From positions 33,976,001 through 34,040,000 of the forward strand of contig NC_135903.1 in NCBI RefSeq assembly GCF_964194155.1: DNA of 64,000 nucleotides. The letters run 5' to 3'. Below the pieces are notes generated by a model, which did not search any database, was not told the origin of the DNA, and was given only the letters and a program-made list of their open reading frames with translations. Shown piece by piece: positions 3,400 to 61,431 of this stretch (its first letter is position 1; every line of letters begins with the position of its first letter). Position numbers and translations under genes: made by a program. This DNA comes from Cetorhinus maximus. Its lineage: Eukaryota.

Positions 3400-4434
3400 G
3401 TCCTTTTCCAACTGCCCATCACCCCTCTCAGTCTGATCCACCCTCTTTACAAACTCTCCTCCCTTTCGGAAATGACAAAACACGTCACTTTCCTTCAGAC
3501 ACTTTCGCTTTGGGATGAAATTGACACCAGGTTAATTTGCAGAGAGAAAGTGACACGGACACTTTCCCGGGAGAGAGACAAGAAAGAAAGGATGAAAGAA
3601 AAGAGAGCGGGATCACTTTCGGACTCAGAATCGGAGCAGATCAAATATTCTTTCAATCCGACTCTGAAAATGGCTCCAGAAAACAACCGAGAAATGAGAA
3701 ACTTCTCCCAGTTAAAGAGCAGATTGTGGGACAGGTCAATCGGAGCGGAGTCTGTCTCCATGAAGCGGTGTCCCTGGGCTGTGAGCCGAGCTGTCTGCAA
3801 TGTCCAACCTGTGAAGTGTGAACAGGACAAGCGCCAGGTGAACACACCGCGGGGACACAGTGGATTTCAAAGGGAATCGCTCTTCATGGGGCCCAATGTC
3901 AGCACTAAAAGCCGCCGCACCGGATCACCGCTGTCGCTCTCTCTATAATCCGGATGATAAAATCCAGCCCCCGATACATGTTCACACTGCCCCCAATTCA
4001 GAGCCTCCCTCTACACCACCTTCGTACCCCAGGTGAGCTGAAGCCACACAACACTGAGCCCGAACCGAGCGCTGCCTGTGATTTTCAACCGGGGATTTTC
4101 CACTCGCTGCTTCCGGAATCTCCAGCTTTTACATTCCTGACCTCAGAAAGGAAACCGGACAAACTATTGATCTCCCGCAGCTCTTCCAAAAATCCTCGAG
4201 CCCGTTTTCACTTTTCGAATGTAATGCCACACATTAAAGCCGACAGCATGGCAGCGCCAGTGAGAGCACCGAGCAGACTCCACACTCACACTCACACTGT
4301 TCGGCAGCACAGGCGCTCGCTCCCGGATCACAAGCAGCTCCGATTCGACTTTCCCAGTTTAAATCCGCCGCGGAATCAAGAAGCCGCCGGTTTCTCATCT
4401 TTCACATCGGTGTTTCACTCTGGGTCGCTTGATC
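3400..4434 (+). promoter_or_regulatory. IFN promoter type A, copy 1 (CpG-rich, IRF/NF-kB motifs)
   Basis: Contains GGGATTTTCC (kB consensus, 4092-4101), GAAAGGAAAC (4146-4155), GTTTTCACTTTTC (reverse strand GAAAAGTGAAAAC, an IRF-E, 4204-4216), a distal GAAA cluster at 3470-3710, TATAAT at 3944 and TTTAAA at 4358. It lies directly upstream of the IFN ATG and occurs six times in the window. Confidence 0.7.
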
Positions 4435-12729: not shown

Positions 12730-13760
12730 TTTCCCAACTGCCCCTCACCCCTCTCAGTCTGATCCACCCTCTTTACAAACCCTCCTCCCTTTCGGAAATG
12801 ACAAAACACGTCACTTTCCTTCAGGCACTTTCGCTTTGGGCTGAAATGGACACCAGGTTAATTTCCAGAGAGAAAGTGACACGGACACTTTCCCGGGAGA
12901 GGGACAAGAAAGAAAGGATGAAAGAAAAGAGAGCGGGATCACTTTCGGACTCAGAATCGGAGCAGATCAAATATTCTTTCAATCCGACTCTGAAAATGGC
13001 TCCAGAAAACAACCGAGAAATGAGAAACTTCTCCCAGTTAAAGAGCAGATTGTGGGACAGGTCAATCGGAGCGGAGTCTGTCTCCATGAAGCGGTGTCCC
13101 TGGGCTGTGAGCCGAGCTCTCTGCAATGTCCAACCTGTGAAGTGTGAACAGGACAAGCGCCAGGTGAACACACCGCGGGGACACAGTGGATTTCAAAGGG
13201 AATCGCTCTTCATGGGGCCCAATGTCAGCACTAAAAGCCGCCGCACCGGATCACCGCTGTCGCTCTCTCTATAATCCGGATGATAAAATCCAGCCCCCGA
13301 TACATGTTCACACTGCCCCCAATTCAGAGCCTCCCTCTACACCACCTTCGTGCCCCAGGTGAGCTGAAGCCACACAACACTGAGCTGGAACCGAGCGCTG
13401 CCTGTGATTTTCAACCGGGGATTTTCCACTCGCTGCTTCCGGAATCTCCAGCTTTTACATTCCTGACCTCAGAAAGGAAACCGGACAAACTATTGATCTC
13501 CCGCAGCTCTTCCAAAAATCCTCGAGCCCGTTTTCACTTTTCGAATGTAATGCCACACATTAAAGCCGACAGCATGGCAGCGCCAGTGAGAGCACCGAGC
13601 AGACTCCACACTCACACTCACACCGTTCGGCAGCACAGGCGCTCGCTCCCGGATCACAAGCGGCTCCGATTCGACTTTCCCAGTTTAAATCCGCCGCGGA
13701 ATCACGAAGCAGTCGGTTTCTCATCTTTCACATCAGTGTTTCACTCTGGGTCGCTTGATC
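12730..13760 (+). promoter_or_regulatory. IFN promoter type A, copy 2
   Basis: Near-identical to 3400-4434, with the same kB and IRF motifs. Confidence 0.7.
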
Positions 13761-16700
13761 ATGGCTTTGGCGAGTATCTGGAGATTCTGGATGGTGTTGC
13801 TCTTCTTGTCCGGGACCCTCAGTCTGGGATGTGACAGGCTGCAGTTACAGCAAGTTCTCAACACAGAGACTCTCAGCAAACTGAATGCAATGGTGAGTTG
13901 AACCCAAAACACCGAGTCGGTAATTATGTTGAGGGGAGAGAGGGAATCAGCCTCCAGGAGAGATTAAATCTGGATTTGGGTGAAGGAACAAATGGGATCT
14001 GAGAGGAAATTGGAAAGCAGACATTGAGGAGGAGGGCGCTCAATGACGGAAGAAGCGGAATGTGAACCTGAAGGGGGAGAGGGGGCAAATCAGAGACAGC
14101 CCATCAGTAACAACCATTCAGAATAATAGAGCCACTTTAAGGTCTCAAGGTGCCTCACGGGAATGTTATACAGCAACATTTGTTGTGGTGGGCACAGCAA
14201 GATTTCAAACTTTGCAGATGATACAAATTTTGGAAATGTTGTCAACTGTGATGCGGATGGTGCTGAACTTAAAAACGACATTGGCATGTTTGTGGATTGG
14301 GCAGACAAGTGGCAGATGAAGTTCAATGTAGAGAAATGTGAGGTGATACGTTTTGGGAGGCAAGATAAGGCGAGACCTTATAAAATAAAGGGAGTGACTC
14401 TACAGGATGTGCAGGAACAGAGGGACCTCGGTGTATATGCGGATTGGTCATTGAAGATGGCAGGGCATATTGAGAGCAGTTAATAAAGAATATACTAGCA
14501 TAGGCTTTATTAATTGTGGCGTTGAGTAGAAGAGAAAAGAGGTCATGTCGAACTTGTATAAGACACCAGTTAGGCATCATCTGGAGTACTGTTCTGGGCA
14601 CCATACTTGAGGAAGGATGTAAGGGTATTGTTGAGAGTACAGAGGAGGTTAACAAGAATCATTCCCAGGATAACGAACTGTAGCTACGCGGGAGGATTGG
14701 AGAGGTTGTCACTGTTTTCCTTGGAGAAAAGAATGTGGAGATTAGGCTTAATTGAGGAACTCAAGGTACCCTGTGGGGTATGGACAGCGTTAATAATAAG
14801 AAACCGTCTCCACGAAAACGAACATCAAGAAATATAGGGCACAGGTTGAAAATAGTTGGCAAAGGGAGTAAATGTGATATGAGGAGCAATTTTTGAACCC
14901 AGGGTGTGATTGGAGCAAACTTCACGCAGTGCTTTCAATATTTGAAAATGAGGGTGAGAATTTTAAAATGAAGGTATTTCTTATCCAGGAGACTGACGCT
15001 GTGTTTTGTTTGATCTCCCTGAGGAGATGCATGTCGAACAGAAATAGAAAGGGACCTAAAATAGATTCTTGGGGACACAGAGGCTAAACGTTGGGGCTGG
15101 GTGGGTGATGGTGGGGAAGAGATGCCATTCTGGGCTTTTACAGTCTGCATTTAGACAGTGGGAGCCAGGCAGTGTATCCCCAACCAGCAGGCCCATGGTG
15201 GAGAAAGTTGAATTCTGATGTTCATGTCGACTATGTCACAGGGCTAGAAGGAGGAGAATGTTTTACATATGTCACGGGCATGTTGAATGTAATTTATGAA
15301 TTTGCCTATCACCTTATGGAGATCTTGTGATGCAATGGGTCGGACCTGCTTTCAGGCAGAGAACTCAAGAACAAGTACAGCCTTATAATGAATCAATGTT
15401 ACCAAATGCCCCTTCATTGCCCCCTTAATGCGAATCCGTTCAATTTGGAGGAAGCATGATAATGTTCCCAAAACATTGTTAAAACTGTTGATCCAAATTA
15501 TTAGAACTTTGAGCTGGAACCGAGCGCGGGTTGTGATTTTCTCTCGGGCATCTTCCAGTCACTGGTTCAGGAATCTCCAGATTTCAGATTCCTTACCTCA
15601 GACAGGGAGCAGACAAACTCTTCCTCTCCTGAAGTCCTTCCAAAACTCCCGCAACCAGATTTCACTTATAGAGTGTAATAGCAACATCGCCAGTCCCCCC
15701 TCTTCACAGCGACAGCTCCTCCCAGCACAATTCTCACACAAACATACACAAACAGGACTGGACATTCAGGCGGTCGCTCCGGCTTCACAAGCTGCAGCAT
15801 TTCCACTCCTCGTGTTTCATTCGCTTCAAAGTAACAGACTTTCGGAGTTGATCCCAGATCCGGTCAGTGTCTGATCCTCAACTCGGGGTGTTTCACTCTG
15901 GGTCGCTTGATCATGGCTTTGGCGAGTATCTGGAGAATTTGGATGGTGTTGCTCTTCTTGTCCGGGACCCTCAGTCATATTTCTTGATGTTCGCTTTCGT
16001 GGAAACGGTTTCTTATTATTTACGCTGTCCATACCCCACAGGCTATCTTGAGTTCCTCAATTAAGCCTAATCTCCACATTCTTTTCTCCAAGGAAAACAG
16101 TGACAACCTCTCCAATCCTCCCGCGTAGTTACAGTTCACCTCCTCTGTACCTCTCAGGGCGGACCTTTTCCCCGACACTGTATAAGACAGAGACTCTCAC
16201 TGAAAACCAAACCCTTGAACCTGGTGAAACTCTCGAAGGAATTAGAGGTGAGTAAACACTCGGTTCATTTGATTCACACAGGGCTTATATACAAAGTAAG
16301 ATCAACAACCGGATCGGAAACTTCCACATCAGGAATTTGGAATAGAGTGATTTGTACCCATTGTGAATGTAGGAGCAGTCTCACTTATTGTATTTCACTC
16401 ACTATCTCACTCATGAACTATATCACTCTCTCTAACCGCACTCACTACTCCCTTATCTCCAACTCTCTCCCTCCCAGATATTATGTCCCTCCCTCTAACT
16501 ACCTGCTCTGCGAGCCATCCGACTGGATCTCCCATCTCCTTTTCCTGCAGGGTCTCTAGATTATTCCGTGCAGACCACTGCCTGATGGGCCTGTTGTCAA
16601 AGGTGTTTCTCTGCCTGAACATTTCTACACGGGATAGGTGGTGAGTCAGGTTCCAAAGGCTTCGAGTGTTCCCGACAACAAGGCCAGTCCCATCCTTTGC

Positions 16701-19299
16701 AACACCGGGGACAGGTTGAAAGTCAGCACTTGCAGTTTGCGTTCCAAGGGTCCACGCACAGCTTGATGCAGCAAGACACAAATGTAGTCATCAGGATGAG
16801 GGCGATGTTGACTGCGTTTGGTCCTCTGATCATTGACTATGTGAAAACTTCTCAACTTTTCTCAACCTAACACCCTTTAATTTTCTCACCGCCTCTAACC
16901 ACCTCACTTCCTCTAAACATCTTATTCCCTGTAACAATTTGCCTCCCTCGAAACATCTCACTCCTCAGCTGCACTGAAAGACTTTGGGGCATGAACCACG
17001 CAGGCAGGTTAGGCCATAGGAACATAGAATGATCCTGTGCTGAAGGAGACCGATTGGGCAGAATGGCCTGTTTCTGTGCCACGTTTCCGATCAACTACCT
17101 GGTGGAAAAATACGTTAGTAGGTACGCACTAACCAGCATTCATATATTCAAGAAAAATCACCTTTCCCAAACTTGATTGAGTTATGTGATAATGCAGCAG
17201 AGAGTGTTCATGAGGTTAGTGCGCTTAATCTTCTGATGATGTCATCATACCTCTGCAGCACTTTGAATGAACGATTCAAATTATTCCCGATCTCATCCCC
17301 CATTACAATGCAAAAATCTTCTCTGACTATTTATCCAATTCTCTCTTGAAAGTTATTATTGAATCTGCTTTTGCTGTTTTGAAAATCAATCCATACGCAC
17401 AGTTTTAAAAGACTAATCATCAGAAGATCCAGCGCACAATCCTCATCAACGCTCTGCTACATTAACACATAACTCAATCAAGCTTGGTAAAGATAATTTG
17501 ATGGTAAAGATGTCTCCCCAGAGATCTCTGTGTCTGAAGGTTTCCCACCACCCAAAATGGTCTAACTGGCCTGTATTTGTTGGGTTTATCCCTCTTCCAT
17601 TTTTGAATGGGATGTAAGTATTTGAAATCTTCTGGTCCGCTGCCATCATGTCCCTCATATCTAAAGAGGACTGGAGGAATGCGGCCAGAAGTGTCATTTC
17701 AACCCTTGCTTTCCTCAGCAATCTCAGCTGTATTCCGACCAGATCAGGTGACTTTCCTAACCTGAGTGCTGCCAATATTTTACGTACCTCCTCTTTATCT
17801 ATTTTAATCCTACCCAATTTCTCTACTCGCTCCCCCTTCACTGTGACTTTTGAAGCATCTGCTTGTGAAGTGAAGACAAATTCCAAGAACTGGTTTAGGT
17901 CCTCCGCCATGTCCTTTGTGTCCCACAAGAAGATTTATTTTTTGCTCACTAATCAACACAAACAAACATTTATTTACATGCTTATTAAAAGTTATTAGCT
18001 TCCCTCTTATGTGACCTGCTCATCAATTCTCATGCATTCTGTTTATTCCTTATTTCTTTTGATAACTTTTCTCCATATTGGCTGCATTCAGCTTGGTTCC
18101 TCACTCAGCTAAGAGCCTAATGTTTCACATAAGGCTTCGTTTTCTGTTTTGTTTTAATGTCTACATCTTTTGGCGATGAGGTCATTGACCTTGCCATGCC
18201 CTTCCTTTCTGCTTCATTGAAAGGAGTCCAGTCTGCAACCATAACATCTCCACTTAAAAAGAGCCTCAATTGCTACTTTCCTCCTGAGGAAGCACTATTT
18301 AAGAGGAGTCAGTGGCTTAGTGGTAGATTCACAGGGTTAATAATTCATGGCCTAGGCTAATGCTCTGGGCACCTGAGTTCATGCCCCATCACACAGCTGG
18401 TGGAATTTTAATTCAATCAATAAACGTGGAATATAACACTAGTGTCAGTAATACTGACCATGCAACTATCATGGATCTTTGTAAAACCCTTCTGATTCAC
18501 TAATGCCTTTTAAGAAAGGAAATGTGACTTCTGCATCTGGACTGGATGACATGTCACTCTCAGCACATGGTCGAATCTTCACTGTCCTTTCTAATATTCA
18601 GTTCAAGGGACATTAGGGATGGACATGTAATTCTGGCTTTGCCAGTGATGCACACATCCCATGAATGTCTAAAGGAAAATAGAATCCTTGATTCAAATAC
18701 ACCTGGGCCAGATCCCCTTTAAATGCACTAAAATTAATCCTCCCCCTTTTGCCCATTTTCAGCTGTATTTGTATTTTGTTCTTTAACATAGTCTGTTCTA
18801 AAATTAAAAGTGAACATGTCCTTTCTAATGTCATTCTCTACATTATACACAGATACAGGATAGGATCCAGATTGTCCATCAAACCCTGTGTCACATCAGA
18901 AAGATCTACAGCATGAACCTGGGTTCAGCCGCATGGGCCCAGGACAAGGTGGAAAACCTTCGGCTTCTCCTGGATCGGCAGCTCGGTGAGCTGGAAGAAT
19001 GTGTCAGGAAAGCAGGATCAGAGCACAAGATGAGGAGAAACTCCGCCATTCACAATTACTTTAGGAAACTGGAAAAGTTTCTCAAACAGGAGGTAGGTCA
19101 ATTGATAAATGACAATGTGATTGCTGGCATGTAGTTCATTTCACCACATTTAAATCTGCTCATTCTCTAATCGGTTTCCCTGAATAATTTTCTTTTTCAG
19201 AAATTCAGTGACTGTGCCTGGGAAATAATGCGCAATGAGACCAGAGCCCGTTTACAACAGCTCCTTTTCATCATAGCACAAATCATCAGAAGAAACTGA
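13761..19299 (+). CDS. IFN: Type I interferon, copy 2 (intact only if upstream exon 1a is spliced to exon 2)
   Basis: Exon 1a 13761-13892 (GTGAG donor), exon 2 16158-16247, exon 3 18853-19092 and exon 4 19201-19299 give an open 186-aa frame ending KFSDCAWEIMRNETRARLQQLLFIIAQIIRRN*. There is an extra Cys in exon 3, and the proximal exon 1b is disrupted. Confidence 0.75.
14195..14900 (+). mobile_element. CR1 LINE 3' fragment between exon 1a and promoter B (paralogs at about 45610-46315 and 55105-56020)
   Basis: ORF 14163-14483 reads ISNFADDT...WADKWQMKFNVEKCEVIRFGR...QRDLGVY. Confidence 0.88.
15509..15912 (+). promoter_or_regulatory. IFN promoter type B, copy 2 (diverged paralog of the proximal half of promoter A)
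   Basis: Aligns by eye to promoter A from tgagctggaaccgagcgc onward. The kB site is altered (gggcatcttcc), GAAAGGAAAC is lost, and it leads into an exon 1 ATG. Confidence 0.55.
15913..16137 (+). pseudogene. Disrupted IFN exon 1b of copy 2
   Basis: Reads MALASIWRIWMVLLFLSGTLS then HIS*. The rest of the exon and intron 1 are replaced by an inverted copy of 14675-14835. Confidence 0.88.
17416..18060 (-). mobile_element. CR1 ORF2 fragment in IFN intron 2 (paralogs at about 24970-25600, 48900-49550 and 59640-60200)
   Basis: ORF 17446-17928 reads MAEDLNQFLEFVFT...LRLGKSPDLVGIQLRLLRK...FQSSLD-like. Confidence 0.75.
18310..18680 (+). mobile_element. tRNA-derived SINE in IFN intron 2 (paralogs at about 25857-26228, 29640-30040, 36313-36685, 40080-40445, 49800-50172, 60440-60812)
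   Basis: Head GGTGGCTTAGTGG...GAGTTCA (pol III A/B boxes) and tail gctggctttgccagtgatgcccacatcccatgaatgaataaa followed by an A-rich end. Confidence 0.75.
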
Positions 19300-30208: not shown

Positions 30209-30655
30209 ACACAGGACAGGATCCAGATTGTCCATCAAACCCTGCGTCACATCAGCAAGATCTACAGCATGAACCTGGGTTCAGCCACATGGGCCCAGGA
30301 CAAGGTGGAAAAGTTCCAGCTTCTCCTGGACCGGCAGCTCGGTGAGCTGGAAGAATGTGTCAGGAAAGCAGGATCAGAGCACAAGATGAGGAGAAACTCC
30401 GCCATTCACAATTAATTTAGGAAACTGGAAAAGTTTCTCAAACAGGAGGTAGGTCAATTGATAAATGACAATGTGAATGCTGGCATGTAGTTCATTTCAC
30501 CACATTGAAAACTGCTCATTCTCTAATCGGTTTCCCTGAATAATTTTCTTTTTCAGAAATTCAGTGACTGTGCCTGGGAAATAATCCGCAATGAGACCAG
30601 AGCCCGTTTACAACAACTCCTTTTCATCATAGCACAAATCAGCAGAAGAAACTGA
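30209..30655 (+). pseudogene. Headless IFN pseudogene, copy 4 (exons 3-4 only, premature stop)
   Basis: Exon 3 30209-30448 has TAC>TAA at 30413-30415, and exon 4 is 30557-30655. Promoter and exons 1-2 are deleted at a junction near 29473-29478. Confidence 0.92.
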
Positions 30656-40616: not shown

Positions 40617-41063
40617 ACACAGGACAGGATCCAGATTGTCCATCAAACCCTGCGTCACATCAGTAAGATCTACAGCATGAACCTGGGTTCAGCCACATGG
40701 GCCCAGGACAAGCTGGAAAACCTCTGGCTTCTCCTGGATTGGCAGCTCGGTGAGCTGGAAGAATGTGTCAGGAAAGCAGGATCAGAGCACAAGATGAGGA
40801 GAAACTCCGCCATTCACAATTACTTTAGGAAACTGGAAAAGTTTCTCAAACAGGAGGTAGGTCAATTGATAAATGACAATGTGATTGCTGGCATTTAGTT
40901 CATTTCACCACATTTAAATCTGCTCATTCTCTAATCGGTTACCCTGAATAACTTTCTTTGTCAGAAATTCAGTGACTGTGCCTGGGAAATAATCCGCACC
41001 GAGACCAGAGCCCGTTTACAACAGCTCCTTTTCATCATAGGACAAATCAGCAGAAGAAAGTGA
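40617..41063 (+). pseudogene. Headless IFN cassette, copy 6 (exons 3-4 only, frame open)
   Basis: Exon 3 40617-40856 has two CGG>TGG Arg>Trp changes, and exon 4 is 40965-41063. The deletion junction at about 39913-39918 is the same as in copy 4. Confidence 0.88.
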
Positions 41064-44124: not shown

Positions 44125-45174
44125 TTTCCCAACTGCCCCTCACCCCTCTCAGTCTGATCCACCCTCTTTACATACCCTCCTCCCTTTCGGAAATGACAAA
44201 ACACGTCACTTTCCTTCAGGCACTTTCGCTTTGGGATGAAATTGACACCAGGTTAATTTGCAGAAAGAAAGTGACACGGACACTTTCCCGGGACAGAGAC
44301 AAGAAAGAAATGATGAAAGAAAAGAGAGCGGGATCACTTTCGGACTCAGAATCGGAGCAGATCAAATATTCTTTCAATCCGACTCTGAAAATGGCTCCAG
44401 AAAACAACCGAGAAATGAGAAACTTCTCCCAGTTAAAGAGCAGATTGTGGGACAGGTCAATCGGAGCGGAGTCTGTCTCCATGAAGCGGTGTCCCTGGGC
44501 TGTGAGCCGAGCTCTCTGCAATGTCCAACCTGTGAAGTGTGAACAGGACAAGCGCCAGGTGAACACACCGCGGGGACACAGTGGATTTCAAAGGGAATCG
44601 CTCTTCATGGGGCCCAATGTCAGCACTAAAAGCCGCCGCACCGGATCACCGCTGTCGCTCTCTCTATAATCCGGATGATAAAATCCAGCCCCCGATACAT
44701 GTTCACACTGCCCCCAATTCAGAGCCTCCCTCTACACCACCTTCGTGCCCCAGGTGAGCTGAAGCCACACAACACTGAGCTGGAACCGAGCGCTGCCTGT
44801 GATTTTCAACCGGGGATTTTCCACTCGCTGCTTCCGGAATCTCCAGCTTTTACATTCCTGACCTCAGAAAGGAAACCGGACAAACTATTGATCTCCCGCA
44901 GCTCTTCCAAAAATCCTCGAGCCCGTTTTCACTTTTCGAATGTAATGCCACACATTAAAGCCGACAGCATGGCAGCGCCAGTGAGAGCACCGAGCAGACT
45001 CCACACTCACACTCACACCGTTCGGCAGCACAGGCGCTCGCTCCCGGATCACAAGCGGCTCAGATTCCACTTTCCCAGTTTTAACCCGCTCGCAAGAACC
45101 GTTTTCGCCGCGGAACCACGAAGCCGCCGGTTTCTCATCTTTCACATCGGTGTTTCACTCTGGGTCGCTTGATC
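44125..45174 (+). promoter_or_regulatory. IFN promoter type A, copy 7
   Basis: Near-identical to copy 1. Confidence 0.7.
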
Positions 45175-45306
45175 ATGGCTTTGGCGAGTATCTGGAGATT
45201 TTGGATGGTGTTGCTCTTCTTGTCCGGGACCCTCAGTCTGGGATGTGAGAGGCTGCAATTACAGCAAGTTCTCAACACAGAGACTCTCAGCAAACTGAAT
45301 GCAATG
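45175..45306 (+). CDS. IFN: Upstream alternative IFN exon 1a of copy 7
   Basis: Intact 44 codons (MALASIW...LNAM) with a GTGAGT donor, followed by CR1 sequence rather than intron 1/exon 2. Confidence 0.7.
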
Positions 45307-46932
45307 GTGAGTTGAACCCAAAACACCGAGTCGGTAATTATGTTGAGGGGAGAGAGGGAATCAGCCTCCAGGAGAGATTAAATCTGAATTTGGGTGAAGG
45401 AACAAATGGGATCCGAGAGGAAACTGGAAAGCAGACATTGAGGAGGAGGGCGCTCAGTGACGGACGGAGCGGAATGTGACCCTGAAGGGGGAGAGGGGGC
45501 AAATCAGAGACAGCCCATCAGTAACAACCATTCAGAATAATAGAGCGACTTTAAGGTCTCAAGGTGCCTCACGGGAATGTTATACAGCAACATTTGTTGT
45601 GGTGGGCACAGCAAGATTTCAAACTTTGCAGATGATACGAAGTTGGAAATGCTGTCGACAGTGACGGGGATGGTGTTGAACTTAAAAAGGACATAGACAT
45701 GTTGGTGGATTGGGCAGACAAGCGGCAGATGAAGTTTAGTGCAGAGAAGTGTGAGGTGATAAGTTTTGGGAGGCAAGATAAAGTGAGACGGTACAAAATA
45801 AAGGGAGTGACTCTACAGGAGGTGCAGGAACAGAGGGACCTCGGTGTATATGCGGATTGGTCAGTGAAGAAGGCAGGGAATATTGAGAGAGCAGTTAATA
45901 AAGCATATACTAGCTTAGGCTTTATTAATCGTGGCATTGAGTAGAACAGAAAAGAGGTCATGTCGAACTTGTATAAGACACTAGTTAGGCATCATCTGGA
46001 ATACTGTTCTGGGCACCATACTTGAGGAAAGATGTGAGGGTATTGGTGAAAGTACAGAAGAGATGCACAAGAATGATTCCCAGGATAATGAACTGTATCT
46101 ACGCGGGAGGATTGGAGAGGTTGTCAATGTTTTCCTTGGAGAAAAGAATGTGGAGATTAGGTTTAATTGAGGAACTCAAGATCCTGTGGGGTATGGACAG
46201 GGTAAATAATGAGAAACTGTCTCCACTAAAGCGAACATCAAGAAATATAGGGCAAAGGTTCAAAATAGTTGGCAAAATGAGTAAATGTGATGTGAGGAGC
46301 AATTTTTGAACCCAGGATGTGATTGGAGCAAACTTCACACAGTGCTTTCAATATTTGAAAATGAGGGTGAGAATTTTAAAATGAAGGTATTTCTTATCCA
46401 GGAGACTGACGCTGTGTTTTGTTTGATCTCCCCGAGGAGATGCATGTCGAACAGAAATAGAAAGGGACCAAAAATAGATTCTTGGGGACACAGGGGCTAA
46501 ACGTTGGGGCTGGGTGGGTGATGGTTGAGAAGAGATGCCATTCTGGGGGTTTATAGGCTGCATTTAGACAGTGGGAGCCAGGCAGTGTATCCCCAACCAG
46601 CAGGCCCATGGTGGAGAATGTTGAATTCTGATGTTCATGTCGAACATGTCAAAGATTGCGGACAGGGCGAGAAGGAGGAGAACAGTTTACGTATGTCACG
46701 GGCATGTTGAATGTAATTTATGAATTTATCTATCATCTTATGGAGATCTTGTGATGCAATGGGTCGGACCTGCTTTCAGGCAGAGAACTCAAGAACAACT
46801 ACAGCCTTATAACCTATCAATGTAACCAAATGCCCCTTCATTGCCCCCTTGATGTGAATCAGTTCAATTTGGAGGAAACATTATAATTTTCCCAAAATAT
46901 TGTTAATACTTTTGATCAAAATTATAGAACTT

Positions 46933-47339
46933 TGAGCTGGAACCGAGCGCGTGTTGTGATTTTCTCTCGGGCATCTTCCAGTCACTGGTTCAGGAATCTC
47001 CAGATTTCAGATTCCTTACCTCAGACAGGGAGCAGACAAACTCGTCCGCTCCTGAAGTCCTTCCAAAACTCCCGCAAGCAGATTTCACTTTTCGGGTGTA
47101 ATAGCAACATCGCCAGTCCCCCCTCTTCACAGCGACGGCAACTCCCAGCACAATTCTCACACAAACATACACACACACACAGGACTGGACATTCAGGCGG
47201 TCGCTCCGGCTTCACAAGCGGCAGCATTTCCACGCCTGGTGTTTCATTCGCTTCAAAGGAAGTGTCTTTCGGAGTTGATCCCGGATCCAGTCAGTGTCTG
47301 ATCCTCAGCTCGGGGTGTTTCACTCTGGGTCTCTTGATC
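46933..47339 (+). promoter_or_regulatory. IFN promoter type B, copy 7
   Basis: Paralog of 15509-15912 that retains the IRF-E-like TTTCACTTTTC at about 47083. Confidence 0.55.
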
Positions 47340-50300
47340 ATGGCTTTGGCGAGTATCTGGAGATTCTGGATGGTGTTGCTCTTCTTGTCCGGGACCCTCA
47401 GTCTGGGATGTGACAGGCTGCACTTACAGCAAGTTCTCAACACAGAGACTCTCAGCAAACTGAATGCAATGGTGAGTTGAACCTGCAGCCAGAGCAGGAG
47501 GTGAATCACATTGTGTCCGCTTGCTGTGAAATGTCACATCAGGGGAAATGTTTTGCGATTTGTCATTTTGTGCAATGAATAGTCGGTGATTCTTCAGTAT
47601 TTGAATTTATGGGGCTGATTGTAACAGTGATTGTTTTCCCCTCTCAGGGCGGACCCTTTCCCCGACACTGTATAAGACAGAGACTCTCACTGAAAACCAA
47701 ACCGTTGAACCTGGTGAAACTCTCGAAGGAATTAGAGGTGAGTAAACACTCGGTTCATTTGATTCACACAGGGCTTTTATACAAAGTAAGATCAACAACC
47801 GGATCGGAAACTTCCACATCAGGAATTTGGAATAGAGTGATTTGTACCCATTGTGAATGTAGGAGCAGTCTCACTTATTGTATTTCACTCACTATCTCAC
47901 TCATGAACTATATCACTCTCTCTAACCGCACTCACTACCCCTTATCTCCAACTCTCTCCCTCCCTGATATTATGTCCCTCCCGCTAACTACCTGCTCTGG
48001 GAACCATCCGACTGGATCTCACATCTCCTTTTCCTGCAGGGCCTCTAGATTATTCCGTGCAGACCACTGCCTGATGGGCCTGTTGTCAAAGATGTTTCTC
48101 TGCCTGAACATTTCTACACGGGATAGGTGGTGAGGCAAGTTCCAAAGGCTTCGAGTGTTCCCGACAACAAGGCCACTCCCATGCTTTACAACACCGGGGA
48201 CAGGTTTAAACTCAACACTTGCAGTTTGCGTTCAAAGGGTCCACGCACAGCTTGATGCAGCCAGACACAAATGTAGTCATCAGGATGAGGGCGATGTTGA
48301 GTGCGTTTTGTCCTCTGATCATTGACTACGTGAAAACTTCTCAACTTTTCTCAACCTAACACCCTATAATTTTCTCACCGCCTCTAACCACCTCACTTCC
48401 TCTAAACATCTTATTCCCTGTAACAATTTGCCTCCCTCGAAACATCTCACTCCTGAGCTGCACTGAATGACTTTGGGGCATGAATCACGCAGGCAGGATA
48501 GGCCATAGGATCATAGAATGATCCTGTGCTGAAGGAGTCCGATTGGGCAGAATGGTCTGTTTCTGTGCCACGTTTCCGATCAACTACCTGGTGGATAAAT
48601 ACGTTAGTAGGTACGCACTAACCAGCATTCATATATTCAAGAAAAATCACCTTTCCCAAACTTGATTGAGTTATGTGATAATGTAGCAGAGCGTGTTCAT
48701 GAGATTAGTGCGCTTAATCTTCTGATGATGTCATCATACCTCTGCAGCACTTTGAATGAACGATTCAAATTAATCCCGCTTTCATCCCCCATTACAATGC
48801 AAAATTTTTCTCTGACTATTTATCCAATTCTCTCTTGAAAGTTATTATTGAATCTGCTTTTGCTGTTTTGTAAATCAATCCGTACGCACACTTTTAAAAG
48901 GCTAATCATCAGAAGATCCAGCGCACAATCCTCATCAACGCTCTCTGCTACATTATCACTTAACACAATCAAGCTTGGTAAAGATAATTTGATGGTAAAG
49001 ATGTCTCCCCAGAGATCATTGTGTCTGAAGGTTTCCCACCACCCAAAATGGACTAACTGGCCTGGAGTTGTTGGATTTATCCCTCTTCCATTTTTGAATG
49101 GGATGTAAGTATTTGAAATCTTCTGGTCCGCTGCCATCATGTCCCTCATATCTAAAGAGGACTGGAGGAATGCGGCCAGAAGTGTTATTAAAACCCTTGC
49201 TTTCCTCAGCAATCTCAGCTGTATTCCGTCCAGACCAGGTGACTTTCCCAACCTGAGTGCTGCCAATATTTTACGTACCTCCTCTTTATCTATTTTTATC
49301 CTGCCCAATTTCTCTACTCGCTCCCCCTTCACTGTGACTTTTGAAGCATCTGCTTGTGAAGTGAAGACAAATTCCAAGAATTGGTTTAGATCCTCCGCCA
49401 TGTCCTTTGTATCCCACAAGAAGATTTATTTTTTGCTCACTAATCATCACAAACAAACATTTATTTACATGCTTATTAAAGGTTTTTAGCTTCCCTCTTA
49501 CGTGATCTGCTCATCAATTTTCATGCATTCTGTTTATTCCTCATTTCTTTTGATAACCTTTCTCCATATGGGCTGCATTCAGCTTGGTTCCTCACTGTGC
49601 TAAGAGCCTAATGTTTCACATAAGGCTTCGTTTTCTGTTTTGTTTTAATCTCTACATCTTTTGGCGATGACGTCATTGACCTTTCAATGCCCTTCCTTTC
49701 TGCTTCATTGAAAGGAGTCCAGTCTGCAACCATAACATCTCCACTTAAAAAGAGCCTCAATTGCTACTTTCCTCCCGAGGATGCACTATTTAAGAGGAGA
49801 TGGTGGCTTAGTGGTAGATTCACAGGTTTAATAATTCATGGCCTAGGCTAATGCTCTGGGCACCTGAGTTCATGCCCCATCACACAGATGGTGGAATTTT
49901 AATTCAATCAATAAACGTGGAATATAACACTAGTGTCAGTAATACTGACCATGCAACTATCATGGATCTTTGTAAAACCCTTCTGATTCACTAATGTCTT
50001 TTAAGAAAGGAAACGTGACTTCTGCACCTGGACTGGATGACATGTCACTCTCAGCACATGGTCGAATCTTCACTGTCCTTTCAAATATTCAGTTCAAGGG
50101 ACATTAGGGATGGGCATCTAATGCTGGCTTTGCCAGTGATGCCCACATCCCATGAATGAATAAAGGAAAAAAGAATCCTTGATTCAAATACACCTGGGCC
50201 AGATCCCATTTAAATGCACTAAAATTAATCCTCCCCTTTTTGACCGATTTTAGCTCTATTTGAATTTTGTTCTTTAACATAGTCTGTTCTAAAACTAAAG

Positions 50301-50790
50301 GTGAACATGTCCTCTCTAATGTCATTCTCTACATTATACACAGACACAGGACAGGATCCAGATTGTCCATCAAACCCTGCGTCACATCAGCAAGATCTAC
50401 AGCATGAACCTGGGTTCAGCCACATGGGCCCAGGACAAGGTGGAAAACCTTCGGCTTCTCCTGGATCGGCAGCTCGGTGAGCTGGAAGAATGTGTCAGGA
50501 AAGCAGGATCAGAGCACAAGATGAGGAGAAACTCTGCCATTCACAATTACTTTAGGAAACTGGAAAAGTTTCTCAAACAGGAGGTAGGTCAATTGATAAA
50601 TGACAATGTGAATGCTGGCATGTAGTTCATTTCACCACATTTAAATCTGCTCATGCTCTAATCGGTTTCCCTGAATAACTTTCTTTTTCAGAAATTCAGT
50701 GACTGTGCCTGGGAAATAATCCGCAATGAGACCAGAGCCCGTTTACAACAACTCCTTTTCATCATAGCACAAATCAGCAGAAGAAACTGA
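47340..50790 (+). CDS. IFN: Type I interferon, copy 7 (4 exons, 186 aa)
   Basis: Exons 47340-47471, 47648-47737, 50344-50583 and 50692-50790, with an open frame, 4 Cys and CAWE. Confidence 0.95.
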
Positions 50791-53616: not shown

Positions 53617-54666
53617 TTTCCCAACAGCCCCTCACCCCTCTCAGTCTGATTCACCCTCTTTACAAACCCTCCTCCCTTTCGGAAATGACAAAACACATCA
53701 CTTTCCTTCAGGCACTTCCACTTTTGGCTGAAATTGACACCAGGTTAATTTGCAGAGAGAAAGTGACACGGACACTTTCCCGGGAGAGAGACAAGAAAGA
53801 AAGGATGAAAGAAAAGAGAGCGGGATCACTTTCGGACTCAGAATCGGAGCAGATCAAATATTCTTTCAATCCGACTCTGAAAATGGCTCCAGAAAACAAC
53901 CGAGAAATGAGAAACTTCTCCCAGTTAAAGAGCAGATTGTGGGACAGGTCACTCGGAGCGGAGTCTGTCTCCATGAAGCGGTGTCCCTGGGCTGTGAGCC
54001 GAGCTCTCTGCAATGTCCAACCTGTGAAGTGTGAACAGGACAAGCGCCAGGTGAACACACCGCGGGGACACAGTGGATTTCAAAGGGAATCGCTCTTCAT
54101 GGGGCCCAATGTCAGCACTAAAAGCCGCCGCACCGGATCACCGCTGTCGCTCTCTCTATAATCCGGATGATAAAATCCAGCCCCCGATACATGTTCACAC
54201 TGCCCCCAATTCAGAGCCTCCCTCTACACCACCTTCGTGCCCCAGGTGAGCTGAAGCCACACAACACTGAGCTGGAACCGAGCGCTGCCTGTGATTTTCA
54301 ACCGGGGATTTTCCACTCGCTGCTTCCGGAATCTCCAGCTTTTACATTCCTGACCTCAGAAAGGAAACCGGACAAACTATTGATCTCCCGCAGCTCTTCC
54401 AAAAATCCTCGAGCCCGTTTTCACTTTTCGAATGTAATTCCACACGTTAAAGCCGACAGCATGGCAGCGCCAGTGAGAGCACCGAGCAGACTCCACACTC
54501 ACACTCACACCGTTCGGCAGCACAGGCGCTCGCTCCCGGATCACAAGCGGCTCCGATTCGACTTTCCCAGTTTAAATCCGCTCGCAAGAACCGTTTTCGC
54601 CGCGGAACCACGAAGCCGCCGGTTTCTCATCTTTCACATCGGTGTTTCACTCTGGGTCGCTTGATC
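53617..54666 (+). promoter_or_regulatory. IFN promoter type A, copy 8
   Basis: Near-identical to copy 1. Confidence 0.7.
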
Positions 54667-54798
54667 ATGGCTTTGGCGAGTATCTGGAGATTTTGGATGA
54701 TGTTGCTCTTCTTGTCCGGGACCCTCAGTCTGGGATGTGACAGGCTGCAGCTACAGCAAGTTCTCAACACAGAGACTCTCAGCAAACTGAATGCAATG
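54667..54798 (+). CDS. IFN: Upstream alternative IFN exon 1a of copy 8
   Basis: Intact 44 codons (MALASIWRFWMMLL...LNAM) with a GTGAGT donor, followed by CR1 sequence. Confidence 0.7.
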
Positions 54799-56912
54799 GT
54801 GAGTTGAACCCAAAACACCGAGTCGGTAATTATGTTGAGGGGAGAGAGGGAATCAGCCTCCAGGAGAGATTAAATCTGAGTCTGGGCGAAGGTACAAATG
54901 GGATCTGAGAGGAAATTGGAAAGCAGACATTGAGGAGGAGAGCACTCAGTGACGGAAGAAGCGGAATGTGACCCTGAAAGGGGAGAGGGGGCAAATCAGA
55001 GGCAGCCCATCAGTAACAACCATTCAGAATGATAGAGCGACTTTAAGGTCTCAAGGTGCCTCACGGGAATGTTATACAGCAACATTTGTTGTGGTGGTCA
55101 CAGCAAGATTTCAAACTTTTCAGATGATATGAAGTTGGAAATGTTGCCGACTGTGACGGGGATGGTGTTGAAGTTAAAAAGGACATAGACATGTTGGTGG
55201 ACTGGGCAGACAAGTGGCAGATGTAGTTCAATGCAGAGAACTGTGAGGTGATCCGTTTTGGCAGGAAAGGTAAGGAGGGACGGTATAAATTAAAGGGAGT
55301 GACTGTACAGTAGGTACTGGAACAGAGGAACTTCGGTGTATATACGGATTGGTCAATGAAAATGGCATGGCATGTTGAGAGAGCTGTTAAAAAGCATATA
55401 GTAGCTTAGGCTTTATTAATAAGGGCATTGAGTGCTAGAGAAAAGAGGTCATGTCGAACTTGTATGAGACTCTAGTTAGGCGTCATTTGGAGTACTGTGT
55501 CCAGTTCTTCGCACCATTCTTGAGGAAGGATGTGAAGGCATTGGTGAGAGTACAGTGGAGATTCACAAGAATGATTCCCTGGATAATAAACTGTAGCTAT
55601 GCGGGTGGATTGGAGAGTTTGGCACTGTTTTCCTTGGAGAAGAGATGGTGGAGATGACACTTGATTGAGGGACTCAAGTCGCTGGGGGGTATGGACAGGG
55701 TAAGTAATGAGAAACTGTTTCCACTAAAGCGAACATCAATAGTTAGAGGGCACAGGTTCAAAATAGTTGGCAAAAGGAGTAAATGTGATGTGAGGAAAAG
55801 TATTTGAACCCAGAAGGTGGTTGGAGTCTGGGGCAAACTTCCTGAAAGTGTATTGGGGGCAGGTTCGATCGAGGCATTGAACAGGGAATTGGATTTCTTC
55901 CTGAAAAGAGAGAGAATGTGCAAGGTTACAAGGATAAGGCAGGGGAGCGCAACTATGTTGAATGCTCTTTCAGAGAAGCAGTGCAGACTCGATGGGCCAA
56001 ATGGCCTTCTTCTGCAATGTAAAGACATTGTGACACTGTGGACAATTGATGCCAAGTCACAGGAGAAGATATTAAAGCAGGTGACTAAAAGCTTGGTCAA
56101 AGAAGTTGATTTTAAGGAGCGTTTTAATGGCGAAATAGGGGGAAAGAGTCGGAGAGATTTAGGTCAGAAATTACTGAGGTTGAGAGTTCGGCAGGCGAAG
56201 GGACCGCCCCCAATGGTGGAATAGTTAAAGTGGGGATTGTGGAGACGGTAGAATTAGAGGAGAGCTGGTATCTCAGAAGGTTGAAAGGCTGGAGGTGATT
56301 ACAGAGATAGGGAGTGTTTAGGGCCTGGAGTGATTTGAAAATGAGGATGAGGATTTTAAAGTCAAGCATTTCTTATCCAGGAGACTGACGCTGTGTTTTG
56401 TTTGATCTCCCCGAGGGGCGGCATGTTGATGAGAAATAGAAAGGGACCAAAGATAGGTCCTTGGGCACACAGAGGCTAAAGGTTGGGGCTGGGTGGGTGA
56501 TGGTGGAGAAGAGATGCTATTCTGGGGGTTTACAGTCTGCATTTAGACAGTGGGAGCCAGGCAGTGTATCCCCAACCAGCAGGCCCATGGTGGAGAAAGT
56601 TCAATTCTGATGGTCTCGTCGACCATGTCAAAGATTGCGGACAGGGCGAGAAGGAGGAGAATAGTTTACATATGTCACGGGCATATTGAATGTAATTTAT
56701 TAATTTGACTATCACCTTATGGAGATCTTGTGATGCAATGGGTCGAACCTGCTTTCAGGCAGAGAACTCAAGAACACGAACAGCCTTATAATCTAACAAT
56801 CTAACCAAAGGCCCCTTTATTGCCCCCTTAATGCGAATCCGTTCAATTTGGAGGAAACATTATATTTTTCCCAAAGCGTTATGAATTATATTGATCCAAA
56901 TTGTTGGAACGT

Positions 56913-57312
56913 TGACCAGGAACCGAGCGCGGGTTGTGATTTCCTCTCGGCATCTTCCAGTCACTGGTTCAGGAATCTCCAGATTTCAGATTCCTTACCT
57001 CAGACAGGGAGCAGACAAACTCGTCCTCTCCTGAAATTCTTCCAAATCTCCCGCAACCAGATTTCGCTTTTCGAATGTAATAGCAACATCGCCAGTGCCC
57101 CCTCTTCACAACGACAGCTCCTCCCAGCACAATTCGCACACACACACACACACAGGACTGGATGTTCAGGCGGTCGCTCCGGCTTCACAAGCAGCAGCTT
57201 TCCCACTCCCGGTGTTTCATTCGCTTCAGAAGAACCGTTGTTCGAAGTTGAACCCAGATCTGGTCAGTGCATGATCCTCAGGTCGGAGCGATTCACTCTG
57301 GGTCGCTTGATC
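56913..57312 (+). promoter_or_regulatory. IFN promoter type B, copy 8
   Basis: A more diverged paralog of 46933-47339. Confidence 0.55.
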
Positions 57313-60300
57313 ATGGCTTTGGCGAGTATCTGGAGATTTTGGATGGTGTTGCTCTCCTTGTCCGGGACCCTCATTCTGGGATGTGACAGGCTGCAGTTAC
57401 AGCAAGTTCTCAACACAGAGACTCTCAGAAAACTGAATGCAATGGTGAGTTGAACCTGCAGTCAGAGCAGGAGGTGAATCACATTGTGTCCGCTTGCTGT
57501 GAAATGTCACATCAGGGGAAATGTTTTGCGATTTGTCATTTTGTGCAATGAATTGTCTGTGATTCTCCAGTATTTGAGTTTTTGGGGCTGATTGTAACAG
57601 TGATTGTTTTCCCCTCTCAGGGCGGACCCTTTCCCCGACACTGTATAAGACAGAGACTCTCACTGAAAACCAAACCCTTGAACCTGGTGATACTCTCGAA
57701 GGAATTAGAGGTGAGTGAACACTCAGTTTATTTGATTCACACAGGGCTTTTATACAAAGTAAGATCAACAACCGGATCGGAAACTTCCACATCAGGAATT
57801 TGGAATAGAGTGATTTGTACCCATTGTGAATGTAGGTGCAGTCTCACTTATTGTATTTCACTCACTATCTCACTCATGAACTATATCACTCTCTCTAACC
57901 GCACTCACTACCCCCTTAACTCCAACTATCTCCCTCCCTGATATTATGTCCCTCCCTCGAACTACCTGTTCTGGGAACCACCGACTGAATCTCACATCTC
58001 CTTTTCCTGCAGGGCCTCTAGATTATTCCGTGCAGACCACTGCCTGCTGGGCCTGTTGTCAAAGGTGTTTCTCTGCTAAGCATTTCTACAGGGGATAGGT
58101 GGTGAGTCAGGTTCCAAAGGCTTCGAGTGTTCGCGACAACAAGGCCAGTCCCATCCTTTGCAACACCGGGGACAGGTTGAAAGTCAGCACTTGCAGTTTG
58201 CGTTCCAAGGGTCCACGCACAGCTTGATGCAGCCGGACACAAATGTAGTCATCAGGATGAGGGCGATGTTGAGTGCGTTTTGTCCTCTGATCATTGACTT
58301 CGTGAAAACTTCTCAACTTTTCTCAACCTAACACCCTATAATTATCTTACTGCCTCTAACCACCTCACTTCCTCTAATCATCTTATTCCCTTTAACAATT
58401 TGCCTCCTCGAAACATCTCCCTCCTGGGCTGCACTGATTGAATTTGGGGCATTAATCACGCAGGCAGGGTGATTCATAGAATCATAGAATGATCTTGTGC
58501 TGAAGGAGACCGATTGGGCCGAATGGCCTGTTTCTGTGCCACATTTCCTATCAACTGCCTCGTGGAAAAAATTAGGTTAGTAGGTACGCACTAACCAACA
58601 TTCATATATTGAAGAAAAATCACCTTTCCCAAACTTGATTGAGTTATGTGATAATGTAGCCGAGAGTGTTGATACGAATAGTGCGCTGAAACTTCTGATG
58701 ATGTCATCACACCTCTGCAGCTCTTTGAATGAATTATTCAAATTATTCCCGCTCTCATCCCCCATTACAATGCAAACTTTTCCTCCGACTATTTATCCAA
58801 TTCTCTCTTGAAAGTTATTAATGAATCAGCTTTTGCTATTTTGTCAATAAATCCATACGCACACTTTTAAAAGACTAATCATCACAAGATCCAGCGCACA
58901 ATCCTCATCAACACTCTCGGCTACATTATCACATAACTCAATCAAGTTTGGGAAAGATGATTTTTCTTGAATATACGAATGCTGGCTAGTTCGTACCTAC
59001 TAACATATTTTTTTCTAAGTGGCAGTTGATAGGAAATGTGGCACAGAAACAGTCCATTCGTCCCAATCGGTCCATGCCAGTGATTATGCTCCACTCGAGT
59101 CTCCTCACATTTACTCATCTAAATCTAGCATTGTAACCATTTATTTCCAGCACAGGAGGTTGAGGACACATTTGATAGATGTGCACAAGGTTATGACAGG
59201 TTTGAATAAACAAGACAGGAAAAAAATCTTCCTGTTACCTCGTGGTGCAGGGTCTAGGAGACACAGTTAGTGTCTCGCCCCTCTGCCACTTGTATTCAAC
59301 TAGCAGCAGGCAGGGGAGTCACCTAGTGGGAATTCCGAAGAGCAATCCCTGTCAGATTTGCTTCCTGGTTGCCATTAAGGGGTTGAGGGGATGGTGCCCT
59401 TCGTTCAACAGCAGTCAGTGCCTGGTCAAGTAACCCAGCACCAGGAAGATGTCGGGCTGTGGTGAAAGTCACAGGGATTTCCACCTACACCACCACAGCC
59501 CTCACCACCGCCCTCCACCCCCCACCCCCCGCCCCAACCCACCCACCCTGGTATCTTGCTCCTGGTAACCACTTAAGTGCCTAACTGGCACTGAATGCGG
59601 CTGGCCTACCATAAAGAAGGTGAAGCAAGGCTCTCCCTGCCTCTCCAGAGATTACTGTGTCTGAAAGTTTCCCATATCCCAAAATAGATTATCTGGCCTG
59701 TAGTTACTGGGTTTATCCCTCATCCATTTTTGAATGGGATGTAATTACTAGAAATCTTCTGCTCCCCTGCCATCATGTCCCTCATGTCTAAAGAGGACTG
59801 GAAGAATGAGGCCAGAAGCTCTGCTACCTCATTCCTTACTTCGCTCAGCAATCTCAGCTGTATTCCATCCAGACCAGGTGACTTTCCTACCCTGAGCGCT
59901 GCCAATATATTAAGTACCTCCTCTTCATCTCTTTTTATCCTACCCAATTTCTCTACTCGCTCCCCCTTCACTGTGACTTTTGAAGCATCTGCTTGTGAAG
60001 TGAAGACAAATTCCAAGAATTGGTTTAGTTCCTCAGCCATGGCCTTTGAATCCCACAAGAAGATTTCTATTTTGCTCACTAATCATCACAAACAAACATT
60101 TATTTACATGCTTATTAAAGGTTATTAGCTTCCCTCTTACGTGACCTGCTCATCAATTCTCATGCATTCTGTTTACTCCTCATTTCTTTTGGTAATTTTT
60201 CTCCATGTTGTCTGTATTCAGCTTGGATCCTCACTGTACTAAGAGCCTAATATTTAACATAAGGCTTCTTTTTCTGTTTTGTTTTAATCTCTACTTCTTT

Positions 60301-61431
60301 TGGCTATCGGGTCATTAACCTTTGGATGTCCTTCCCTTCTGCTGCATTGAAAGGAGTCCAGTGTGCAACCATAAGATCCCCACTTATAAAGAGCCTCAAT
60401 TGCTCCTTTTCTCTTGACTTAGTAGCCTTATGGAGGAGATGGTGGCTTAGTGGTACTTTCAATTGGTTTAATAAATCATAGCTCAGGATAATGCTCTGGG
60501 GACATGAGTTCAAACCCCACCATAGAGGTGGTGGGATTTTAATTCAATCAATAAATGTGGAATACAACACGAGCCTCAGTAATGTTGACCGTGTAATGAT
60601 CATTGATCATTGTAAAAGCCCTTCTGATTCACTGATGCCCTTTAAGAAAGGAAACCTGCTATCTATTCCTGGCCTGACTGACATGTCGCACTTGGCACAT
60701 GTTCGACTTTCCACTGTCCTTTGAAATATTAAGTTCAAGGGAAATTAGGGATTGGCATCAAATGCTGGCTTTGCCAATGATGCCCACATCCCATGAAAGA
60801 ATAAAGGAAAAAAGAATCTTTGATTCAAAAACACCTGAGCCAGATCCCCTTTAAACTCACTAAAATTAATCTTCTCTCTTTTAAACATTTTTAGCTTGAT
60901 TTGTCTTTTGTTCTTTAACATAATCTGTTCTAAAACGAAAGGAGAACATGTCCTCTCTAATGTCATTCTCTACATTTTACACAGGCACAGGACAGGATCC
61001 AGATTGTCCATCAAACCCTGCGTCGTATCAGCAAGATCTACAGCATGAACCTGGGTTCAGTTGCATGGGCCCGGGACGAGGTGGAGAATTTCCGGATTCT
61101 CCTGGATCGGCAGCTCAGCGAGCTGGAAGAATGTGTTAGGAAACCAGGATCAGAGCACAAGATGAGGAGAAACTTCGCCATTCACAATTACTTTAGGAAA
61201 CTGGAAAAGTTTCTCAAGCAGGAGGTGGGTCAATTGATAATTGACAGTGTGATTGCTGGCATGTAGTTCATTTCACCACATTGAAATCTGTTCATTCTCT
61301 AATCAATTTCCCTGAATGATTTTCTTTTTCAGAAATTCAGTGACTGTGCCTGGGAAATAATCCACACTGAGACCAGAGCCCGTTTACAACAGCTCCTTTT
61401 CATCATAGCACAAATCAGCAGAAGAAACTGA
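57313..61431 (+). CDS. IFN: Type I interferon, copy 8 (4 exons, 186 aa)
   Basis: Exons 57313-57444, 57621-57710, 60985-61224 and 61333-61431, with an open frame ending KFSDCAWEIIHTETRARLQQLLFIIAQISRRN*. Confidence 0.95.
58508..59073. repeat. Imperfect inverted repeat (arms about 195 bp) in intron 2 of copy 8
   Basis: 58508-58702 is the reverse complement of 58878-59073, e.g. aaacttgattgagttatgtgataatgtagccgagagtgttgat versus atcaacactctcggctacattatcacataactcaatcaagttt. Confidence 0.85.

Follow-up and report, generated by a model that had tools for sequence, protein, structure and literature searches.

Why an interferon gene should carry two upstream ends, each with a promoter-like region and a signal-peptide exon of its own, in front of a single gene body is the question raised by a gene of Cetorhinus maximus lying at positions 44125–50790 of a 64,000-nucleotide stretch of DNA (the window; contig NC_135903.1, positions 33,976,001 to 34,040,000, here G000:C26:33976001-34040000). 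An earlier note, made from the sequence of the window alone, had described three such genes (copies 2, 7 and 8) and had proposed that nearly the same secreted interferon (IFN) could be made under two induction programmes, through alternative first exons. The double head is real, and it is commoner than three copies, being present in 11 genes. As to its meaning, the upstream head (head A) is probably the working one, and the downstream head (head B) a relic.

The target gene (copy 7) is formed by exons at 45175–45306, 47648–47737, 50344–50583 and 50692–50790 with phase-0 GT-AG introns, which give a 186-aa protein. Its translation, read by eye, has a signal-type N-terminus, four Cys and a CAWE motif, the last lying in exon 4 together with the stop. 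Exon 1a codes for the signal peptide and the start of the mature IFN, exon 2 is of the GGPFPRHC type with AG/GT ends, and exon 3 matches Pfam PF00143 (interferon alpha/beta domain; E=1.6e-12). Of 60 candidates, 30 are homologous to exon 3 at E<=0.001, and all of these proteins come from sharks or skates and contain PF00143, the nearest among the matches listed being Cetorhinus maximus proteins, and close proteins occur in many sharks. The four exons and three introns match those of cartilaginous-fish type I IFN genes (as given in the available part of PMC5332411), and all three joins (the later two being 47737>50344 and 50583>50692) are present in contigs from relatives. On these characters they are placed among the type I IFN genes of cartilaginous fish, with a predicted antiviral function through IFNAR. 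A search for growth-hormone synteny with PF00103 gave a single match, on the small contig C2096.

Head A of copy 7, which lies on the plus strand, comprises a distal module (44150–44260), with an IRF-like site (IRF, interferon regulatory factor), CACTTTCGCTTT, at 44221–44232, where a long transcript probably begins; a leader of ~915 nt (44260–45174), with 13 upstream ATGs counted over 44250–45174; and a proximal module (44776–45144), with a kB site (44812–44822), GAAAGGAAAC (44867–44876), an IRF element (IRF-E, 44927–44937) and a TATA-like ATTAAA (44954–44959). Exon 1a ends at a GTGAGT donor (45307). The spacer behind it starts with ~280 nt of unique DNA (45319–45599), of which 11 full-length copies exist, all within dual genes, continues with the decayed 3′ part of a CR1-type long interspersed nuclear element (LINE) in sense orientation (45600–46330; reverse-transcriptase motif FADDTK with stops, dispersed copies at 83–87%) and ends with an antisense LINE reverse-transcriptase remnant (46353–46930, minus strand), which adjoins head B and the first 52 nt of which are dispersed in the genome. 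The reverse translation of this remnant resembles what we take to be an L2/CR1-clade reverse-transcriptase stretch. Thus, the description of the spacer as CR1 in the earlier note holds for the sense 3′ end, and the unique DNA and the antisense remnant have to be added. The likeness of the spacer to intron 1 stops 12 nt past the exon 1a donor, and a derivation from an old intron 1 was rejected, as 54–179 of 300 shuffles equalled the score in alignments to four intron-1 types. Head B follows on the plus strand, with an upstream region (46933–47309) of ancient homology to the proximal module of A, an altered kB site (46969–46979), a retained IRF-E (47083–47093) and exon 1b (47340–47471), 97.7% identical to exon 1a. 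An intron of 176 nt separates exon 1b from exon 2 in copies 7 and 8. The order A, exon 1a, spacer, B, exon 1b, intron and exons 2–4 was correctly described for these two copies, copy 8 (53617–61431, plus strand; exon 1a at 54667, exon 1b at 57313, exon 2 at 57621) having a longer spacer; copy 2 (12730–19299, plus strand) departs from it, its exon 1b being cut and without a donor.

In the 454 kb mapped around the window, a plus-strand IFN array extends over 33.92–34.16 Mb (240 kb) and is built of 69–73-kb higher-order repeats ~1% apart, so that the copy number may be off. Of its 33 copies of exon 1, 22 belong to A heads and 11 to B heads. All 11 B heads stand behind a head A and the common spacer type, giving the 11 dual genes, and it follows from their number that the double head is not due to chance. 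The remaining 11 A heads run directly into intron 1, seven of them on a GGPF-type and four on an old GGRF-type body. No stand-alone head B was found in the assembly among the best candidates of a genome search with B. Such a repeat structure might suggest that the double head was itself created during assembly, through collapse or chimeric joining of the tandem array. This is hardly credible: the dual genes fall into five spacer lineages up to 15% apart in CR1, the upstream regions of A and B are 33% apart, X7 contigs cover the unique spacer and gapless pieces of the spacer are found in a second organism (organism A).

The case for a relic head B starts from its sequence. Homology between the heads begins ~410 nt before the ATG, with 268 of 395 aligned columns identical (68%), and the ~33% distance upstream falls to ~6% between −30 and the end of exon 1. 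As had been noted earlier, the distal part of A has no counterpart in B, where both kB and GAAAGGAAAC are altered; a descent of the DNA upstream of B from a former A leader was not accepted, since an equal score came up in 10 of 300 shuffles. Across the array, the kB site and the TATA-like element are found in 21/22 and 22/22 A heads, respectively, and in none of the 11 B heads, IRF-E being present in 22/22 A and 8/11 B heads. On average the 11 dual genes differ from one another by 1.1–1.6% in A, as compared with 6.9% for B, 8.6% for CR1 and 6.5% for the antisense LINE. When one representative of each of the five lineages is taken, 60 of 371 columns vary in B, 135 of 728 in CR1 and 80 of 567 in the antisense LINE, as against 11 of 350 in the A proximal module and 8 of 475 in the A leader. 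Thus, B varies like the flanking repeats (p=0.87) and unlike A proximal (p=1e-9), and no constraint on the B upstream region was detected in the 11 dual genes and five lineages. The proposal of two induction programmes through A and B finds no positive support in these comparisons.

Exon 1a, by contrast with exon 1b, is open with a GT donor in all 11 dual genes. At 13761, 45175 and 54667 it is, as previously described, an open 44-codon signal exon that ends ATG|GTGAGT in phase 0, in frame with exon 2. Exon 1b is intact in 9/11. In the other two genes, copy 2 and a twin of it at 33922837, it stops after 64 nt (15913–15976 in copy 2), where an inverted CR1 piece (15977–16137) replaces the donor and intron 1 and closes the frame after 24 codons; the piece is spacer CR1, 94–98% identical to eight spacers, and is followed by a 12-nt switch. 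Copy 2 retains an intact CAG acceptor (AG at 16156–16157), and its exon 1a and exons 2–4 are open and equal public protein P0039. Exon 1a is, therefore, the sole route to a full-length IFN in that gene. Exon 1a and exons 2–4 of the target gene likewise equal public protein P0043 exactly, and at least eight of the 11 dual genes have exact matches among the 47 public proteins compared (15 of 22 cluster members being listed), seven through exon 1a, P0043 included, and one through exon 1b (P0002); all these public models are predictions. Exons 2–4 are open in all 11 dual genes, one of which has a changed exon-4 acceptor. Intron 1 and exon 1b are about equally homogeneous (mean difference 2.5% and 2.8%, respectively, among the dual genes), so that conversion alone would explain an open exon 1b and no selection is needed.

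Transcript evidence is in the form of assembled contigs, seven of 11 listed runs having been compared; six of these are RNA-like runs on two related organisms (four studies, five samples), in which ‘RNA’ is a guessed label and from which rare forms drop out. The join 45306>47648 (GT..AG) is made by a contig in 4/4 runs, and the later introns are joined too. All four contigs carry A-type upstream sequence, unbroken where A and B part, and in runs X4 and X6 contigs with A-type upstream sequence pass from exon 1 into exon-2 letters. The B region 47077–47534 has depth 0 in 4/4 of the relatives’ runs, a weak indication, since the relatives may lack B or have diverged in it, and rare forms are lost from contigs.

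Several points weigh against a working head A with a relic behind it. IRF-E is kept by eight of the 11 B heads, the observed/expected CpG ratio is 0.73 in B versus 0.41–0.44 in its flanks, and the 5′ half of B is somewhat less variable (21 of 173 columns, p=0.15). The low diversity of A could stem from conversion among 22 copies, B having 11 partners, so that the contrast between A and B is not one of pure selection. One public model, P0002, does use exon 1b. The donors of exons 1a and 1b are identical, and an RNA started at A could, therefore, take the nearer 1b donor. Finally, the support for the splice join comes from relatives’ contigs, and the join fits single-head genes equally well; the junction that the earlier note had proposed to look for is seen in relatives, in a form which single-head genes would also yield.

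Some of these points would be expected if both heads were used, A in a strong primary response and B in an IRF-only, kB-independent one, with a near-identical secreted IFN as the product. The nine intact exons 1b, the eight IRF-E, the partly retained CpG and the one exon 1b protein agree with such a use, the arrangement looks old (from the A/B distance and the spacer pieces in organism A), and duplicated first exons are able to act as alternative starts in Drosophila hydra (PMC1904467, in the part available). This double use appears doubtful, given that B is without detectable constraint, that kB and the TATA-like element are gone from all 11 copies and IRF-E from three, that exon 1b is destroyed in 2/11 and conversion suffices to keep it open elsewhere, and that every exon-1 contig in the six runs has A-type upstream sequence.

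The identical donors also bear on the view, offered in the earlier note as its own refutation, that exon 1a is an orphan. RNA from A would then take the 1b donor or terminate in the spacer, with a non-functional product of 46 aa; the dual genes would be silent or driven by B, and IFN would come from the 11 single-head genes. Indeed, a stop is met two codons past exon 1a on read-through, AATAAA/ATTAAA hexamers are found in 3/3 spacers checked, and the relatives’ join could come wholly from single-head genes. Such a fate of exon 1a is nevertheless unlikely, because the copy-2-type genes, which have no other complete first exon, retain the frame of exon 1a and exons 2–4 and the acceptor despite the loss of 1b, because seven public models splice 1a to exon 2 and because the relatives’ contigs join A to exon 2; exons 2–4 also remain open in the 11 dual genes, apart from the changed acceptor.

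If head A is the working head, transcription would be driven from it, and its RNA would be spliced from exon 1a to exon 2 across head B, over 2.3–2.8 kb. Head B would represent an old unit of proximal promoter and exon 1, severed from any distal module by the LINE, with exon 1b held open by gene conversion with the 22 A exons over a tract from about −30 to exon 2. The single-head GGPF-type genes may have arisen by crossover between exons 1a and 1b. Within head A, a distal IRF-type start would produce the ~915-nt leader rich in upstream ATGs, and the proximal start would probably be inducible.

How head A itself is organised can be followed in the same contigs. In X1 a continuous contig covers 44259–45307, at a depth of 65 versus 3–4 upstream, and goes into exon 2 with no splice in the leader. 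Contigs start in relatives at 44241 (X2), 44259 (X1) and 44261 (X3), just past the IRF-like site of the distal module, contigs as such proving neither a transcription start nor a single molecule. From the cover in X1 it follows that the sites assigned to promoter A by the earlier note are themselves transcribed in some RNA at least: kB, GAAAGGAAAC and IRF-E are present as reported, and the purine-rich ‘distal GAAA cluster’ falls within the sequence covered by the relatives’ spliced contig. As a contig reaches ~915 nt upstream of the ATG, head A likely holds two starts, a distal IRF-type one with the long leader and a proximal one with kB, IRF-E and the TATA-like element, the latter probably inducible. 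On motifs alone, two IRF-site modules ~700 nt apart occur in 22/22 A heads, the version of the distal module in the leftmost gene being old and diverged. That gene (L006, G000:C26:33919700-33919927) carries a perfect TTTCACTTTC site in its distal module, which is homologous to that of A (0/300 shuffles with equal score), and its conversion ends at −758. The distal and proximal modules are not duplicates of each other, as 18–111 of 300 shuffles equalled the score.

None of the 38 X1 substitutions checked, out of 39, falls in kB or IRF-E, and GAAAGGAAAC is one G short in the contigs of all six runs. The A leader differs from organism A in 39 of 1042 letters, like exon 3 (10 of 240), and two intron-2 pieces differ more (19 of 228 and 16 of 223). 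A coding role of the upstream open reading frame at 44313–44669 was rejected (of 13 listed X1 differences, four are silent and nine lie in changed codons). An acceptor-like TTTTACATTCCTGACCTCAG is found in the A leader (44840–44867) and is retained in B at 47024; no joint to the former was seen in the relatives’ contigs.

The site at 47024 would be essential, as the acceptor to which exon 1a is spliced, if the B ‘promoter’ were a coding internal exon; a linker of 105 aa and another hydrophobic segment would then be added, leading to a tethered or intracellular IFN. The region 46887–47339 does, in 6/11 copies, form an open frame of 151–174 codons in phase with the 1b ATG, with an in-frame acceptor-like CAG, and 105 open codons were reached in 78 of 5000 shuffles. 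That it is translated is very improbable, since pN/pS is 0.83 and 1.23, as in the other two frames, a neutral simulation leaves the frame open in 36–62% of cases, the frame is broken in 5/11 copies and the relatives’ contigs skip the region.

Gene conversion, invoked above for exon 1b, is visible in head A, since a GGRF-type paralog and a GGPF-type gene share 95–100% identity confined to −1000 to +100, with 67–86% on the flanks. Among named proteins, exon 1 is identical at 42–44 of 44 positions between the GGPF and GGRF types within a species, as compared with 20 of 30 for exon 2, which is identical at 30 of 30 between species; white shark proteins have the same exon-1 pattern. Comparison of window positions 3404–4650 with the corresponding part of other A heads shows that a head cassette of 1.2 kb, made up of the distal module, the leader, exon 1 and ~50 nt of intron 1, is homogenised across the two old paralog types, which differ in exon 2. 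A broader reading, which taken as a whole is rather unlikely, would give each body three starts: a distal IRF promoter, with a long basal transcript damped by upstream reading frames; a proximal kB/IRF promoter, serving the primary response; and head B, responsive to IRF only and equipped with a signal exon. Single-head genes would result from crossover of 1a with 1b, the ratio of dual to single-head genes would tune the induction of the array and conversion would spread the head cassette over old paralogs.

As to age, pieces from organism A match the spacer without gaps at 46184–46344, 46321–46471 and 45514–45590 (depth 2–3, one study), and their full-length matches in the Cetorhinus maximus assembly lie only in dual-gene spacers (best 40 of 65, 93 and 676 candidates, respectively). 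They hint weakly at a double head older than the separation of the species, since pre-mRNA or carried-over DNA might also have given such pieces. The minus-strand and MAPSC paralogs were uninformative for rooting A against B, their likeness ending ~70 nt upstream of the ATG. Deletion of the body of an upstream gene and duplication of the head are both candidates for the origin.

Parts of the published record allow the arrangement to be placed among known systems. In the sections available of PMC5332411 and PMC6640115, cartilaginous-fish type I IFN genes share the tandem cluster, PF00143 and lineage-specific expansion with the present array, and a duplicated first exon or promoter is not described there (‘promoter’ has no hits in PMC6640115); no promoter study of a shark IFN was found in the literature searched, the accessible text of PMC6640115 and PMC5536018 included. 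Teleost IFNa/IFNphi1 genes (salmon IFNa1, zebrafish IFNphi1, trout IFN1) are described in the excerpts at hand as two-promoter genes that yield long and short transcripts (PMC5127012, PMC3828176), the salmonid IFNa form having a long 5′ untranslated region with many start codons and an inducible short transcript (PMC3828176, PMC5127012). Head A alone would resemble these genes in its two candidate regulatory regions and its putative ATG-rich long leader. The teleost long form, as reported there, loses the signal peptide, whereas in the long contig from relatives the signal exon is retained, without a leader splice, and the dual genes differ further in having a whole second signal exon downstream. 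Head A is, accordingly, not counted as a gene of the teleost type. In Drosophila hydra, according to the part available of PMC1904467, nine duplicated first exons exist, at least four of which are shown to be starts. It is alike in tandem exon 1 units with transposon DNA between them and a common gene body (here, 11 genes); unlike in hydra, the use of B is putative and the unit itself is multiplied in an array. B varies like its flanking repeats rather than as a constrained promoter.

In IGF1 the leader exons code for different signal peptides. The human gene, with its promoters P1 and P2 on one secreted-protein gene (PMC7582825, in part), is alike in the two promoters, the shark exons 1a and 1b being, by contrast, ~97% identical. 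The earlier remark that no such architecture was known from other IFN loci is too broad with respect to dual promoters, which are known in teleosts. As to the duplicated signal exon, no report of one in an IFN gene was found in a search that covered few subscription journals and, for the sources cited, parts of their text. This exon would be the new element, real as a structure and unproven in function, two-promoter IFN genes and transposon-separated first exons being already known. If head A truly starts at two places, one distal and one proximal, the teleost-type design either is older than the divergence of sharks from bony fish or evolved twice. A head cassette common to paralogs with different exon 2 might let the family share an induction programme with differing proteins. 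If B is dead, the double head mainly records the growth of the array and is a trap for annotation. The locus offers natural tests, in the form of exons 1a and 1b tagged by single-nucleotide polymorphisms and the natural loss of 1b in copy 2.

Beyond the array, a second tandem IFN array of the MVFPSV type, with a period of ~5.35 kb, lies on the minus strand (G000:C26:34190000-34286000), a divergent MAPSC-type gene on the plus strand at 34294611 and a broken exon 1 at 34170273. The last dual gene (G000:C26:34153309) has CCG instead of CAG at its exon-4 acceptor, with an in-frame CAG 9 nt downstream. Headless units of exons 3–4 follow complete genes (30209–30655 and 40617–41063 in the window; seven units in the array); three of the seven carry a stop in exon 3, one has a changed donor, and the others are open and could serve as alternative 3′ ends.

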